From sequence record PV700625: DNA of 64,000 bases. One strand, written 5' to 3'. Position numbers and translations under genes: made by a program. The notes under the pieces are model-generated. The model saw nothing but the letters and a program-made list of their open reading frames with translations, was not told the origin of the DNA and made no database searches. This DNA is from Escherichia phage MET-P1-301. This document shows positions 1-51,325 of this stretch, piece after piece (within the stretch, counting starts at the first letter, position 1; every line of letters starts with the position of its first letter).

Positions 1-980
1 GTTCCCTTACCATCCCTTTGCAAAATTTTAAAATATCCTTAACAATCTCTTAACAGTTCTCACATCTTCTTAACAACTCTTCAAAGGTCTTAACAGTTTC
101 TTAACAGAACTGACAAGGATGTAACAGTTTTCTAACAAGATTTGATAGGGCTTTACAGAATCTTAACAGATGACTAACAAGAGCTAACAAGTTAATTTTA
201 AAGAGTTATTTTGTTAAGATAATTAACAAGTTCCTAACAAGTGTTTAATCTTTTTAACAAACTATTAACATGGTCACTATCTCTTTCTTATCGTTCCCTT
301 TCTCTCTTAGTGATTCCTTAAACATACCTCTTAAAAGCTCTCTATAGCCCCTTATAAGCTCTTTTAAGCCTCTTCCTAGTAGTTACACCCCAACTATACA
401 GACACCTCTTTATAGAGCTTTACAGGAGCTTTTAAGGCTATGTCAAAGGTTCTTACAAGGCTTTTACGTGGTCTTAACAGAGATTTAACAAGGGGCTAAC
501 AAGTCTCTAACAAGCATAACTATGTAGGGTTTGTTAAGAAATTGTTAAGAAAATGTTAAGGGGCTAGCATTTACGTAACTTTTAAGCTATCTATCACGTA
601 ACTTTATAGCCTCTTTTATGTAACTTTGAAGTGACTTCATAGCCCCCTTTTAGTAGTTCACAAGAATACTAACGAGATGATAAAGCTTACACCCTTATAA
701 GATTCTTTTAAGGCTCTAGGAAGCTCTATAAAGGGCTTTTTAGAGTGGGTTAATATGATTGCTTAAGTTAGGTTGATAAGGCTGTTATAGAGCTTTATAG
801 AGCGTTTTAATGGTTGCCCTTCCCTTTCGGGTTATGGGCTTATATTTAAGTTGATTTGATAAGAGGTTATAGAGTAGACTATAGAGTTATTGCTTTTTAA
901 GGTACGAGATAGATTCTATCGAATTAGTGGGATAGCTTCTAGAAAGGAAAGGGAAAGGGATTGTATAAGGATTCGATAGA
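1..980. repeat. Non-coding region with phased arrays of short repeats; candidate origin / terminal / regulator-binding region
   Basis: No ORF of 60 aa or more. TTAACA[AG]/CTAACAAG occurs more than 15 times in 40-290 and again in 470-520, mostly at 11-12 bp spacing; inverted TGTTAAG x3 at 530-560; GTAACTTT x3 at 580-630; TATAGAG pairs at 780-890. Confidence 0.5.
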
Positions 981-1034
981 CGTAAAAAGCCCCATTTAAG
1001 GGGCTGTAAGGTATCTGGGGCTATTTAGCCCCGC
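981..1034 (-). terminator. Tandem GC hairpins ending the leftward early transcript
   Basis: GGGGCtatttaGCCCC (1017-1032) and AGCCCCatttaaGGGGCT (988-1005); on the minus strand the second is followed by a TTTT run. Lies just downstream of the last leftward ORF. Confidence 0.5.
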
Positions 1035-1042
1035 TGCGTCGA

Positions 1043-13343: not shown

Positions 13344-15709
13344 TTAATCGTAAACTGTAGTTCCTTCTGGAACACACTTCACATCAAAGCCTAAGAACTT
13401 ACTCACTTCGATGGGTGACACTTTATTCCAATCTAAATGAGAAAGCAAGAAGTTTTCTTGTTTTCTTTTTGAAAGGTAGTTTGTCACCTTAATAACCATA
13501 CGGTCACCAGCTTTCTTAATTTTCTTGTAAAGCTTTGTATCGTTGTCAAGACAGTCTTTCAAAGTTTTCAATACACTAATAGTATAAGTGTATGCAAATG
13601 GTGCAGCAACGTATTGGATTTTACCGAACATTGCCTCTACAGCCTCTTCATTACCTTCTAGGAAGATAGTTTTGTTTGTATCCCGTGAATAGCAATAACC
13701 ACGAGAAATCTTCCTATTATTGAATGTAAAGTTTCTGGCAATAATCCAGCTACTTGTAAGGTCAAGAACACCATTCATATAGATGCGTGTCATATACCTG
13801 TTATGATTAATCCAATGAACATCAGTTAAGCTGTCGTTCAAGAGCTTCTCATCTACTTCAATCCAGTCTTCTGGTATCTTTTTCCAATTTGCTTTTCGGA
13901 AAACATAGACTGTCTTTCCAATAACATTAGCAACTGACTTAGCTACATCTTCTGGGGATGAGCAAAAACATTCACCATCAACTGTGTCACCAATTGCCTT
14001 AATGTAAAGCTGAGGTTCTTCAATTGTGTCTAAGTCCTCTGACACCTCTTTGTAGGAGGCTACACCTTCTGCTGGAACAGCTTTCCAGAGTTTTACAACA
14101 CCTCTTACAGCTTCTTTACGCTGGTAATGGTGTTCCTTATCAGACATTTTCACAATCTTTAACAAGCTTTTATCAAGTTTGTGCAGATTGATTAAGTCAT
14201 CTAACTCTTTTTCAGTCGAGAATACAAAGACAATACCATTGTATCTGTGAAACAGACTTGACTCACTGGCATAGTCTCGACATGCACCACGCAAGATTTG
14301 GTTGCGTCCTACAGTCTTCTCAGTACCATTTTTATTGCGACGGTCATTTATAACAAACAAAAACTGTTCAATTTGGCTTTTACGCATTGCGCCAAAGATA
14401 TTGAACATACTTGCCTCTTGAGTGTAGGAAAGTGCTGTTGCACGAATCTTACTCTCTAAAGAGTTGAACTTGACATAAGCAACTGGGTCATAAAGATAAT
14501 CTACTTTAGGGATGTTGTTTCCGTTCCTATCAACCTTAATATTACCTTTACCGTCACGTTCATAAATGACTGAGCCGTCTTCTGCGTAGATAATTCCACG
14601 ACGAATGTTTAGTAATTCTTCTTCCAGAGAATCAAGCTTAACGCCTCCCCACTCTAACTTTGGACACACAGCATTAAACATCTCTCGTGAGTTCAAACGT
14701 AACTCAGCATAAGCCTGTGCAGCATCCATGAGTGTAGGTTGACTGTTAACTTTCTTGATAACATCCTTTGTAATTGCTTCAGTTATCTTTTAGTAGCCTC
14801 AATGATAACATTTTTTGTCGTGTCATTCATCTGCAATGCTTCACGAGAAGCTGCAATAGCGACTGAACCAATAGGCATGTAGATGTTTACAAGGTCTACG
14901 CTCCTACGGAAAAATTCTGGCAATACTTTGAAGAAATCATCACCAAGTAATGCTTCCATGTTAACAGGGTAGGCAATGTTACCCATCACCACATTAAACT
15001 CTGTCCTGTTACCACTAGAACGCCAGCTTTGCTTATGAATCATGGCATCATAAACACCCTCTTCACGGGCAATGACGTTCATATCTGCTAATACATCGTC
15101 GTACACAATATTACTTTCTGGTTTTACAGCAAAGTATGAGTATACATTACCAGCTTCTTCAAAGAACTTTGAGATACGGTGGTCAGCAACTGCCACACGT
15201 ACAGCTAAACCATTAGGTTCTTTTGTTGGGTTAGTGGTCAGCTTAGTTACTTGAGGAATACCATTCTCAAGATAAACAGAGTACTTATTAACAACACCAT
15301 CAACATAGCTAGATACTGTGAATGACTGAGCAATTGCAAATGGTGACTTTGAGCCGATACCCATTGCACCAATGTAATCATTGGAGTCATTCTTCGTAGA
15401 AGCTCCGTAGTTCAGATACAAACTCATTACTTTGTCATGGGTTAAACCAGTTCCAAAGTCACGGACTTCAAAGTAAGGCTCAAAACGAGTAGGTAAATGC
15501 ACATGGAACGGGATGTTCTCTTTTCCAGCTTCTTTCTGAGCATCTACTGCGTTACATGACAGTTCACGAATCACTGCCCTTTCTTTAAAGGTATATACAC
15601 CAGAACTCAAAAGGCTGAACATCTCAGGTGTCATTGTAATCTGTGCTTGAGACGTCTCTAAAGAAGTTGAACTCTTAATCACTTCTGCGTGGTCATTTAC
15701 CATGCGCAT
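13344..15709 (-). CDS. rIIA: rIIA-like protein (N-terminal GHKL ATPase fold), two ORFs probably joined by a frameshift near 14730-14785
   Basis: 14783-15709 has GHKL-type motifs (RELSCNAVDA, RDFGTGL, YIGAMGIGSKSPF, AIAASREAL) recalled from T4 rIIA; 13344-14729 continues; combined ~780 aa; rIIA-rIIB synteny. Confidence 0.7.
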
Positions 15710-15737
15710 AATACTTTCCTCTTAGTTTACTGTTAAA

Positions 15738-15914
15738 TTACTTATTAAACATTTTACCAGAACCACCACACATAGGGCAACAACCTGCTCTTGTATACCC
15801 TTCTCCGTTACAGTAGTCACACTTCTTGTGTTCTGCAAAGTACTTACAAAGAAGGTAAACAAGGACTGCTACACTACCAAGTGACAGTAAAATTTCTACC
15901 CAATATGCTTGCAT
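15738..15914 (-). CDS. small membrane protein with C-terminal zinc-finger-like repeat (58 aa)
   Basis: Hand-translated: MQAYWVEILLSLGSVAVLVYLLCKYF...CDYCNGEG...CPMCGGSG. Confidence 0.4.
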   Translation of the reverse strand: MQAYWVEILLSLGSVAVLVYLLCKYFAEHKKCDYCNGEGYTRAGCCPMCGGSGKMFNK

Positions 15915-48691: not shown

Positions 48692-48964
48692 TTATTTCTC
48701 CCCCTTAAAAGCTTTTTCTAAGTTATCTACGAACTCATCATCAATAGGTGTGTCTGTTTTACTCGCAAGGTATCTTGCAAGCTTAAAGAACACTTTCTCA
48801 ATCATGTATTCACTCAGAAGGGATAAAATGAGTTTCCAGAAGAAGCTACCTAGATTTTTAGAAGAATTGCTAGGATTGTAGGCATTTAATCACCTCATCA
48901 GCCAAGATGGTGAGAATACCAATAAAGAATATTAACACCATCTTAACAATCAGTCAACAAGGGA

Positions 48965-51325
48965 TTAAGCAGTTCTTACCCAAGCCATTAACTTATAGAA
49001 CTGGTTAGTAACACTAAATGCTGAACCAGAACCAGTACCACCTGTGTTACCACTAACTGTGTGGCTGTGAGCACCAATACCAACAGTGTGGCTGTGGTTA
49101 CCTGTTGTATTCGTTACACCAGACCAGTTTCTTGATGCGTTGAAGTTGACAGGGATACCATTAGTAAAGTTGTTACCAGTATACCCTTTAGAACCTGCCT
49201 GACTACCGAGGTAGAATGCACCACTTGCTGTGTAGAAGCTACTAGCGTCACTTCTGAAGTAACCAAATGAACCAGTAATCTCCATAGTACCTCTGTTGTG
49301 GTTGTGGTTACCAGTTGTGCTAGAGGTCTTAGTACCATAGTCAAATGATGAAGTGGTAGCAGAGAAACTGTGTGTATGTGAAGGTAAGTTACCAACAGAT
49401 AACGTTACAGAGTCTGAACCACCAGTTGTAGCAACATCTGAACCGTTTGCTGCTGCAATTCTAATAGTTCTACCAACACCATTGTTCAGGTACGTCCAAG
49501 TTAGACCAGGAAGTGCTGTATTAGGGTTAACATTACTGTTAAACCACGTTACAATACCTACTGGATAGATTTTATTCAGGTCTGTAGAGTCACTTACTGC
49601 CTGTGCAATCCTCTGGTCAGTTTCAGCTTTAGTGTATGCACCGATATCTGAAGGTGTTGGTTTATCTTTGTCTGTATAGATTTTAGACCAAGCACTCTCA
49701 AAACCATAACCGTCTCTTGCTGACCTATACCAAAAACCACCATTGTTGTAGTTAAATTTTAGCTGAGCCGCTGGTGTAGAACTGCTACCCTGATACATAT
49801 GGTAGACCAGTTGTGTTGAACCACCAGATTTCCCTGTAACATTATACAGACCAGTTTTAGCATTCCAAGCAATGCCATCACTATCACCTACCTCTGTACC
49901 AGTGCCAGAAGAATAAGCAAGCATATACCTAGAGTTTGCGGTAGATTGCGTGTAATATCTAGCATCTAGGTTAGAGAAATCTGAAGGTTGAACTTGACCA
50001 GTGATTGCTAAAGTTGCATTCATTTCGAATGATGAACCAATGTTAAGCCCTTTACCTGTCTTGTAGTTATACAGGTTTAAGATGTCGCTGGCATCACCAT
50101 TCCCAACATACCACTTGCTAGTTCCATCAGCAGATTTACCTCTAATAAACAATGACGTTACAGTTTTTGCTTGTAACGCAAGGGCTTCGCCATCAGAGTT
50201 AATAATCTGCTGCGCAGAGAATGTGTTAACAGCATTAGTTCTTGCAATCGTACTTAATGTTGCTGCCGGAATATATCTAGAGTCAATGTTAGCCCAATCT
50301 GAAGGTTGGACTTGTCCAGTGATTTGCACAGTTTTATTGATACCAATAGTAGTACCTAGCGAAACCTGTGAACCTGCAAGGTAGTTATAAATATTTAGAC
50401 GTGTCTCGTCAGAATCTGTACCAACATACCATTTATTTGTTCCATCAGACTTCTTACCGAGAATGTAAAGTGCTGTACTTGCATCAGTATTCTGCAAAGT
50501 AATAGCATTAGCATTCTTCTTAGCAACAAGGTTAGTGAAAGTGTTAGCACCTGTAAAAGTGTTATTACCAGCTAACTGTGCAAATCTCTGATTAGCAACT
50601 GTCTGAGTAAAGTATCTAGCATCTAAGTTAGAGAAATCTGAAGGTTGAACTTGTCCAGTGATTGCTAAAGATTTATTAACAGAGATGTTGCTTGCAATAG
50701 TCAAGGCTGAATTGTATTTGTTATTATACAACTTCACTTCATCAGAGCCATTACTACCAATACCAACCCACCATCTAGCCGAACCATCTAGGTTTACACC
50801 TTCGATATATTGTGCATTATTTGCATTTTGGTTTCTAAGGCGAAGTAAGTTAGCATCACCTTGAATATTTTGAGTTCCAGAGAATGTGTTTGTGATAGCA
50901 ATTCTTGCGTATCTTGCATCATTCTCTTCATTAGTTCTCATACCAAGCTCATTAGGACTTGGCTTATTCAGAGTATGATAAACAGTTGCTGACCTTGAAG
51001 CATCTGCAATAGTTAGTTTAAGACCATTTGCGTTAATTTTAAAAGTCTTTAAAATATCCCCAATAGTAATCTCAGAAGAGCCTGTAGGGTCAAATACAGC
51101 CTTACCACCATAAAGTAACTTGACAATACCTAAATCCCCAGTCATAGTGCTTCCAGCAATCTGAACAAACCTTTCTAGTTTGAAGGAAGCTAAGAAGTCT
51201 TGATAGGTCATTCTACGGTCTTCATCACCCAACATTTCAGGTCTTTTCTTAACTCTGATGTGCAATAGGTCTTCTGAACGAATTGTGTCGATTGAGTTTA
51301 ACTGACTCAATTTGTAATCTGCCAT
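48965..51325 (-). CDS. Tail fibre protein (786 aa) with C-terminal His-x-His repeats
   Basis: Repetitive beta-rich sequence with NLDARY repeats; C-terminal HTHSFSATT, GNHNHNRG, GNHSHTVGIGAHSHTVSG recall T4 gp37-type tips. Confidence 0.7.
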   Translation of the reverse strand: MADYKLSQLNSIDTIRSEDLLHIRVKKRPEMLGDEDRRMTYQDFLASFKLERFVQIAGSTMTGDLGIVKLLYGGKAVFDPTGSSEITIGDILKTFKINANGLKLTIADASRSATVYHTLNKPSPNELGMRTNEENDARYARIAITNTFSGTQNIQGDANLLRLRNQNANNAQYIEGVNLDGSARWWVGIGSNGSDEVKLYNNKYNSALTIASNISVNKSLAITGQVQPSDFSNLDARYFTQTVANQRFAQLAGNNTFTGANTFTNLVAKKNANAITLQNTDASTALYILGKKSDGTNKWYVGTDSDETRLNIYNYLAGSQVSLGTTIGINKTVQITGQVQPSDWANIDSRYIPAATLSTIARTNAVNTFSAQQIINSDGEALALQAKTVTSLFIRGKSADGTSKWYVGNGDASDILNLYNYKTGKGLNIGSSFEMNATLAITGQVQPSDFSNLDARYYTQSTANSRYMLAYSSGTGTEVGDSDGIAWNAKTGLYNVTGKSGGSTQLVYHMYQGSSSTPAAQLKFNYNNGGFWYRSARDGYGFESAWSKIYTDKDKPTPSDIGAYTKAETDQRIAQAVSDSTDLNKIYPVGIVTWFNSNVNPNTALPGLTWTYLNNGVGRTIRIAAANGSDVATTGGSDSVTLSVGNLPSHTHSFSATTSSFDYGTKTSSTTGNHNHNRGTMEITGSFGYFRSDASSFYTASGAFYLGSQAGSKGYTGNNFTNGIPVNFNASRNWSGVTNTTGNHSHTVGIGAHSHTVSGNTGGTGSGSAFSVTNQFYKLMAWVRTA

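Follow-up and report, generated by a model that had tools for sequence, protein, structure and literature searches.

Phased TGTTA repeats in the terminal repeat of a Felix O1-like phage: a candidate protein-binding array at the genome ends

The first kilobase of a 64,000-nucleotide stretch of Escherichia phage MET-P1-301 (sequence record PV700625), which as a whole is called the window here, is non-coding and filled with short repeats. The main repeats lie within a direct terminal repeat (DTR) of the Felix O1-like type, and they probably form an array on which a protein assembles cooperatively and thereby marks the genome ends, the ligand being either the phosphorylated form of the host response regulator ArcA (ArcA-P) or a phage protein. 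In the best reading, the DTR would be built as a protein-binding scaffold, with about 22 TGTTA units placed every helical turn. An earlier first-pass annotation of the same DNA had described the repeats as TTAACA[AG]. It missed that the motif on the other strand is an ArcA-type TGTTA direct repeat, and also that the region is bipartite, consisting of the DTR (1-564) and a unique non-coding spacer (565-1040) located between the DTR and the terminator of a leftward gene array. Felix O1 is a classic phage for the typing of Salmonella, and phages related to it are in wide use for biocontrol and therapy. No small terminase subunit has been found in this group. The analysis offers a testable picture, in which a 570-bp DTR would be a phased array of one 5-bp element, conserved over four genera, bounded exactly by the two cuts and oriented to them.

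The terminal repeat and its boundaries

Positions 1-1100 of the window matched 255 phage records, 228 of which span most of this DNA at ~87-90% identity. Nearly all of them belong to Felixounavirus and related Ounavirinae, with Escherichia, Salmonella, Shigella and Citrobacter as hosts, and the first 12 kb of the window showed the same match pattern. Because of these record matches and of the products of its large open reading frames (ORFs), which include rIIA, NadV, NrdD, NrdA, primase-helicase, DNA polymerase, tail fiber, baseplate, tape measure and sheath, the window was assigned to a Felix O1-type myovirus and would represent ~64 kb of a genome of ~88 kb. The large terminase gene is absent from these 64 kb. 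Some of the database entries encountered look chimeric or contaminated. The record of Staphylococcus phage SA1 (GU169904, 147 kb) holds a Felix-like terminal repeat at 91.9% identity, and OR851333, OR845458 and similar short "phage" records are plainly bacterial contigs with arcA or torR.

Exact end duplications were found in the records of three relatives, Pr103Blw (581 bp), SPJ41 (613 bp) and NBEco005 (651 bp). In all three, the last base of the DTR maps to window position 564, in the context TGTTAAGGGGC/TAGC (…TGTTAAGGGG(G)C/TAGCATTTACGTAAC…, where the slash marks the boundary), and the DTR starts ~12-14 nt before the window does, at the G of GGTAGCCCTTAACA. The left boundary, which reads ...ATATCTGCTT/GGTAGCCCTTAACA in the relatives, falls before the start of the window. 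Both boundary contexts are kept in Felixounavirus, Suspvirus and Mooglevirus. The 581-bp DTR of Pr103Blw has been annotated at the homologous site, with ends determined by PhageTerm, and a 608-bp DTR was mapped in UAB_Phi87 by Bal31 digestion and run-off sequencing. Window positions 3-570 aligned to positions 15166-15771 (606 bp) of UAB_Phi87, where the boundary motifs are 614 bp apart and the published DTR measures 608 bp. The DTRs of UAB_Phi87 and Pr103Blw share with the window the homologous sequence, the boundaries …CTGCTT/GGTAGCCC… and …TGTTAAGGGGGC/TAGC… and the position between two convergent gene arrays. Because of its homology to DTRs with mapped ends and to the exact end duplications, window 1-564 is taken to be the short DTR of a Felix O1-like phage, minus its first ~12-14 nt. 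The right boundary (561-568), the presumed terminase cleavage position, has the cut between 564 and 565, GGGGC/TAGC. Each concatemer junction would contain the DTR once, and the packaged chromosome would have a copy at either end. The same homology bore out the suggestion of the first-pass annotation that the region may mark a genome end. The conserved boundary motifs also make it possible to open Felix-like assemblies at the true genome ends.

No ORF of at least 30 amino acids was found upstream of position 1043, where the first gene ends, in agreement with the earlier statement that the first 980 bp contain none. The leftward gene array is closed by terminator hairpins at 985-1035 (minus strand), with an intrinsic terminator for the minus-strand genes at 1005-988; the region does lie just beyond a terminator, as had been proposed. 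In Felix O1 the homologous DNA sits in a ~1.6 kb gene-free gap between two convergent gene arrays. Transcription of both flanking arrays runs toward the region, not outward.

That Felix O1-like phages have a DTR is already known. The papers on UAB_Phi87 and Pr103Blw give only its length and existence, and neither describes internal repeats or a ligand; the Felix O1 genome paper is silent on the internal repeat architecture and the ligand. We found no paper connecting ArcA with the Felix O1-type DTR, and a literature search on ArcA or oxygen effects in Felix O1-like phages yielded none that links them. A DTR built from a phased, outward-facing array of ArcA-type boxes appears to be undescribed.

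Phasing, layout and conservation of the repeats

The plus strand contains 16 copies of YTAACAR (ten TTAACA[AG] and six CTAACAAG) at positions 39-513, which confirmed the more than 15 copies reported before. YTAACAR occurs at 0.6 per kb across the rest of the window, and all six copies of CTAACAAG present in the 64 kb fall within 39-513. When both strands were counted, 19 of 97 YTAACAR sites were located in the first 550 bp, and the other 78 are about as dense as chance predicts (68 over the whole window). The inverted form TGTTAAG, of which three copies had been noted, was found four times, at 212, 532, 543 and 554. TTAACAR is TGTTA on the opposite strand, and ~22 core units, restricted to the DTR, were recognized. 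Neighboring units are 10, 11, 20, 31 or 39 bp apart (exactly 11 bp in 10 of 17 cases) rather than at the ~11-12 bp described in the first-pass annotation, whose claim of helical phasing nonetheless held. The 14 units of the first cluster have a period of 10.2-10.3 bp (Rayleigh R = 0.93). Since none of 20,000 random placements fitted as well, the helical phasing is real, and it equals the repeat of B-DNA.

The units are organized in three arrays. Array I (36-270, minus strand) has 14 TAACA cores, that is, minus-strand TGTTA, at 40, 51, 71, 91, 102, 122, 133, 164, 175, 185, 224, 235, 255 and 266, and degenerate units in the helical register at 61 (TCACA), 112 (TGACA) and 153 (TTACA). Its super-period is 31 bp, or three turns, and its ArcA-type boxes, scored as described below, reach 14-20 bits. 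The stretch 185-229 is the most AT-rich (85% AT in 185-224) and among the most conserved (88% invariant columns in the bin 201-225); it holds the single inverted unit and forms the palindrome TTGTTAAGATAATTAACAA. Array II (471-513, minus strand) consists of four consecutive units at exactly 11 bp (475, 486, 497 and 508) with an ArcA-type box of 17.9 bits at 474, and its copy number differs among relatives by 11-bp steps. Array III (531-560, plus strand) consists of three TGTTAAG at 11 bp and ends 4 nt from the right DTR boundary. It includes the two best ArcA-type boxes of the whole window and is kept in 13 of 13 relatives (best boxes 20.5-24.1 bits). Read as TGTTA, ~18 units face the left boundary and the three consecutive strong units at 531-560 face the right one. 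Most units are direct repeats with centers 11 bp apart. On the left, an outward-facing unit is 8 bp away from the cut (TGTTAAGGGCTACC/, read on the complementary strand), and on the right another is 4-6 bp away (TGTTAAGGGG(G)C/); for the two sides together the distance was put at 6-8 bp.

Conservation was analyzed in an alignment of 14 sequences from three genera. The columns of the TAACA cores were 80% invariant, compared with 41% between neighboring cores and 49% for all non-core columns (core versus all non-core, Fisher p = 1e-9), and invariance fell to 22-50% at the positions flanking the five-base core. Core positions are nearly superimposable between genera. Length differences among relatives consist almost only of indels of 11, 22 or 50 bp, which preserve the helical register. 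The non-coding repeat is 79-93% identical where the adjacent 82-amino-acid protein is only 48-63% identical. Two-repeat boxes of at least 10 bits numbered 14-17 per DTR in 13 relatives, as opposed to 0-3 in the flanks (600 bp on the left and 450 bp on the right), and window 565-1040 contains none. Some relatives carry one to three copies of a 22-bp palindromic insert, GGGATTGGTAACAATACCAATT, at varied sites of the junction (locus L006 at 842; L010 at 1693; L015 at 1690 and 2307; L018 at 1992, 2041 and 2509); the window lacks it. Other relatives have in their junctions a second palindromic insert, GTGGTTGTTTACAAACACAAC, also of ~22 bp. In their behavior these inserts resemble tiny mobile elements, and the DNA gains two helical turns in every case.

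Erwinia phage phiEa21-4 (Kolesnikvirus) has a syntenic gap of 1.2 kb, the DNA of which is unalignable with that of the window. This gap contains ~27 TGTTA/TAACA units within ~400 bp, as well as 18 boxes, six of them of 18-20.4 bits. The units of the left half are on the minus strand and those of the right half on the plus strand, so that they face outward, as in the Felix group. Because phiEa21-4 shares both the array and the outward layout, the TGTTA element and its layout would predate the split of the four genera. To the left of the TGTTA array, phiEa21-4 (L141, 10600-10920) also has nine copies of CTTCTAA, many of them ~11 bp apart; the junction thus has at least two repeat families in that genus too.

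The phasing, the difference in conservation between cores and spacers, and the 11- and 22-bp indels fit the earlier proposal of cooperative binding along one face of the DNA, and we infer such binding from the sequence. It could be argued instead that the repeats are not binding sites at all and arose by 11-bp replication slippage, being kept as a homologous, perhaps curved, spacer for concatemer formation. Copy number does shift by 11- and 22-bp steps among relatives, and the ends of T7 too have heptamer arrays of no proven function. This explanation is very improbable, since conservation across three genera is twice as high in the cores as in the spacers, the 5-mer and its spacing persist in phiEa21-4 though the remaining region cannot be aligned, the non-coding DNA is better conserved than the neighboring protein, and the orientation of the units is organized relative to both boundaries. 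T7 is itself a DTR phage of enterobacteria, with ~15 copies of CCTAAAG clustered at the left end, in and next to its 160-bp repeat. However, the T7 heptamers have an unrelated motif and are 13 bp apart, which is non-helical. Only 3 of the 15 are located in the repeat and 12 outside it, and they show no evident outward symmetry. The array in the window is not of the T7 type, as its TGTTA units have a 10.3-bp phase and lie inside the repeat.

The first-pass annotation had also considered a replication origin, where iteron-like repeats would bind an initiator beside an AT-rich unwinding element. The phased direct repeats adjoin the 85% AT, highly conserved 40-bp stretch at 185-224, the region is gene-free and transcription converges on it, and ArcA-P is known to bind oriC. 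Still, an origin is improbable. There is no DnaA box (<=1 mismatch) and no IHF consensus, the units have cores of 5-7 bp in each turn instead of iterons of 17-22 bp, and GC skew tracks gene orientation only. Moreover, the array takes up precisely the DNA from one cleavage site to the other and extends no further, which fits end biology better. The other role that had been suggested, a silenced early promoter region, found no support either: a sigma-70 promoter scan gave 5 hits versus 3.8 in shuffles, with no promoter cluster, and both gene arrays are transcribed toward the region.

ArcA-P or a phage protein as the possible ligand

Direct repeats at 11 bp are the architecture recognized by winged-helix response regulators of the OmpR/PhoB type. 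The ArcA element, ATGTTAAAAA with the core TGTTA, occurs as two to five direct repeats with a center-to-center distance of 11 bp (or 22 bp). Binding of ArcA is cooperative and dependent on phosphorylation, elements spaced at 12 bp are not bound, and TGTAA and TGTCA are natural weak variants. The window was scored with weight matrices derived from 115/128 E. coli ChIP-seq boxes (Table S3 of Park et al. 2013). The boxes used for training average 15.7 ± 2.7 bits, and the highest of them reaches 21.5. The best boxes of the window, located by the right boundary at 531 (22.5 bits) and 542 (22.7 bits), exceed every E. coli site, and further boxes scored 20.4, 17.9, 15.9, 15.3, 15.2, 15.0, 14.8 and 14.1 bits. 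Window 1-570 contains 16 boxes of at least 10 bits (10 of them of at least 14 bits), compared with 47 in the other 63 kb, and dinucleotide shuffles of the repeat yielded a mean of 0.76 boxes of at least 10 bits and a maximum of 6. The DTR has the layout of ArcA boxes, with 22 TGTTA cores and direct repeats at 11 bp, and its in-phase degenerate units read TGTGA, TGTCA and TGTAA on the ArcA strand, variants that are found in real ArcA sites. The ArcA proteins of E. coli and Salmonella share 99.6% identity.

The ArcA-P sites of the E. coli and Salmonella chromosomes, such as those of icdA, astC and acs, have the same TGTTA core in direct repeats at 11 bp, with extra elements at 11 or 22 bp. They tolerate the same weak variants as the phage array (TGTAA, TGTCA and TGTGA), and the phage scores equal or exceed the chromosomal ones. 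The two differ in that the chromosomal sites comprise 2-5 repeats over promoters and the phage has ~22 in a promoter-free terminal repeat, and also, significantly, at flank positions 1 and 8 of the predicted phage boxes. On sequence grounds, ArcA-P is the leading named candidate for the ligand, a tentative one and not a finding, and the chances of a phage protein that recognizes the same core are about as good. The motifs of three other regulators were considered and rejected: that of PmrA (CTTAAK N5) is incompatible with the CTAACAAG units, that of TorR (CTGTTCATAT) is violated at the invariant A that follows TGTT, and the G of the OmpR half-sites (GxxAC) is missing. The only other multi-repeat ArcA-type site of the window is found at 48932-48960 (minus strand). 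It has three TGTTA at 11 bp (16.7 and 15.1 bits) and sits in a short gap, flanked on one side by the rightward gene block and on the other by the tail fiber gene (48965-51325), whose 3′ end faces the gap.

Several observations weigh against the proposed array or against ArcA as its protein. The window, which covers 64 of ~88 kb, holds a single copy of the repeat, and its duplication in MET-P1-301 is predicted from the relatives. The flanks of the phage units do not follow the preference of ArcA for W at position 1 and A/T at positions 8-10: position 8 is G in 20 of 43 units (47%), versus 7% of the exact-core E. coli elements (p = 2e-12), and position 1 is C in 30% of the units, versus 5% in E. 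coli (p = 6e-8). The extended consensus YTGTTAAGA is common to the Felix group and phiEa21-4. These deviations at positions 1 and 8, together with the consensus shared with phiEa21-4, suggest that the ligand may have a flank preference of its own or that the units may be under a second constraint. The single-repeat ArcA matrix did not discriminate, with 27 hits compared with a background maximum of 24 per 570 bp, and it was dropped as a measure of density because it is uninformative in AT-rich DNA. A scan of IMG/VR for four perfect TGTTA at 11 bp returned at least 120 contigs, of which, among the matches listed, 9 were Felix-like and the rest belonged to unknown phages, giant-virus bins or AT-rich tandem repeats. 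For the two arrays most like that of the window (L137 and L094), the matches listed include no sequenced phage. Since arrays of TGTTA at 11 bp also occur in unrelated environmental viral contigs and giant-virus bins, an enterobacterial host factor cannot be diagnosed from the pattern, and the scan does not separate a host from a phage ligand. Aerated laboratory cultures, in which most ArcA is unphosphorylated, support good growth of Felix O1-like phages; an obligatory role of ArcA-P in packaging is for this reason unlikely. Finally, all the steps of the mechanism set out below were inferred from the sequence.

The repeats may rather be sites for a phage-encoded protein, an unrecognized small terminase subunit or an early end-binding protein, with the likeness to ArcA due to coincidence or convergence. 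This is a serious possibility, although short of an even chance. Clusters of repeats beside cleavage sites typify terminase recognition, as in the P1 pac hexamers and the lambda cosB R sites. The flank preferences (G at position 8 and C at position 1), unlike those of ArcA and shared by the Felix group and phiEa21-4, are what would be expected of a co-inherited phage protein. Published Felix-like annotations list the large terminase only, and no small subunit was annotated or recognizable beside it, so that the DNA-recognition component is missing from the inventory. However, the genes that were inspected offered no candidate. The ten genes next to the DTR had zero Pfam DNA-binding hits and correspond to PHROGs of unknown function, the ORF that precedes the large terminase in Bas63 encodes a 66-amino-acid acidic protein of an unknown family with no DNA-binding signature, and tblastn detected no OmpR/PhoB-family homologue in more than 250 Felix-like genomes. 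In addition, a match to ArcA in core, orientation and exact 11-bp spacing was estimated to arise by chance in roughly 1-3% of cases, considering the 5-mer and the known direct-repeat regulators.

A cooperative array at the genome ends, whether bound by ArcA-P or by a phage protein, has partial counterparts in other systems. Short repeats flank the cleavage site in lambda cosB (IHF) and P1 pac (4+3 hexamers, IHF/HU), where a host architectural protein takes part. As in the DTR, the repeats are near the cut and a host DNA-binding protein is a possible assembly cofactor. Those sites differ in that they span 100-200 bp with 3-7 repeats, the DTR is without IHF consensus, and packaging proceeds by cos or headful mechanisms, whereas Felix-like phages have an exact DTR. 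The centromere-like parC of plasmid R1 has 11-bp iterons bound by ParR-type proteins that form a cooperative filament. It resembles the DTR in its ten or more direct repeats, one per helical turn, and differs in that no partition genes are present here, the phage is lytic and the motif is unrelated.

In the mechanism that we propose, a protein of the winged-helix type would bind the direct repeats and polymerize cooperatively along one face of the entire DTR, the ends of the array being fixed a few bp from each cleavage site. The nucleoprotein array would then mark the concatemer junction for the terminase and set the two cut positions. After injection, the array protein would cover both chromosome ends, with a bound site beside each terminus. 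Cut placement, end protection, synapsis of the two repeats and titration of a regulator are candidate roles, among which the sequence does not choose.

It is conceivable, at rather less than an even chance, that Felix O1-type ends are built of ~22 high-affinity ArcA sites and that ArcA-P coats the DTR. If so, the sites would be more numerous and stronger than at any bacterial promoter, and this would be the first lytic phage whose chromosome ends have a two-component response regulator as structural partner. Phage DNA maturation or the metabolic take-over of the host would be tied to anaerobiosis, the normal condition of the gut, and the oxygen state of the gut host would be linked to end protection, junction recognition or packaging. 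With hundreds of genomes × ~22 sites, the array could also titrate ArcA-P from its regulon while the phage replicates. Differences in phage yield dependent on oxygen and on arcA would be predicted, which is relevant to therapy. Should a phage protein be the ligand, the array would be a handle for finding the missing DNA-recognition component of the packaging system.

Other repeat families, the spacer and the rest of the window

The central segment of the DTR (271-470) has no TGTTA boxes and contains the octamers CTTWWAAG and CTNTATAG at ~10-11 bp spacing. CTTWWAAG is found seven times in the first kilobase, compared with 0.46 per kb elsewhere. In the relatives, this segment is a hot-spot of 22- and 50-bp insertions. 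Just outside the DTR, at 565-640 (plus strand), there are three copies of TTTAYGTAACTTT with a spacing of 22-23 bp; the first copy is conserved and the copy number varies in relatives. The triplet repeat family mentioned in the first-pass annotation was found again, with GTAACTTT at 575, 598 and 620, and so were the TATAGAG pairs, with copies at 411, 786, 796, 868 and 880. TATAGAG/CTCTATA is enriched, with 7 occurrences in the first kilobase versus 3 in the other 63 kb.

Within the spacer, positions 676-900 (plus strand) form a unique conserved non-coding block with 70-80% invariant columns across three genera. It contains two copies, at 763-803 and 846-886, of a module TTGATAAG..TATAGAG..TATAGAG, which resembles a promoter (TTGATA, 17-18 nt, TATAGA) followed by a second TATAGAG. 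Both copies face the terminator of the converging array, where they might give rise to a short transcript or serve as sites for a protein. No significant RNA structure was detected in 676-900 (z about -1), and RNA/DNA folding of 690-830 and 1-570 gave z values of -1 to -1.9, with no structured element. A scan of positions 1-1400 against Rfam returned only a chance-level match to MIR390, a plant miRNA (25 bits versus a gathering score of 77).

Two further features concern the window at large. GATC does not occur in positions 1-64000, versus 187 ± 13 sites in shuffles, and it is also missing from all the loci of relatives that were checked (L003, L014, L015, L141, L143 and L144), including 16 kb of phiEa21-4. 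The 6-bp palindromes ATCGAT, ATGCAT and AGATCT are absent as well, versus about 21 expected. This points to a strong, subfamily-wide avoidance of Dam/MboI-type and other restriction sites. The small genes on the minus strand are each preceded by a near-identical element of ~65 bp (1292-1334, 1620-1684 and 2216-2285). It combines a GGGAGG…CCTCCC hairpin with a Shine-Dalgarno sequence, reads …cccactaaataa.tcctaaactggagattc.aaATG on the coding strand, and looks like a repeated expression cassette.

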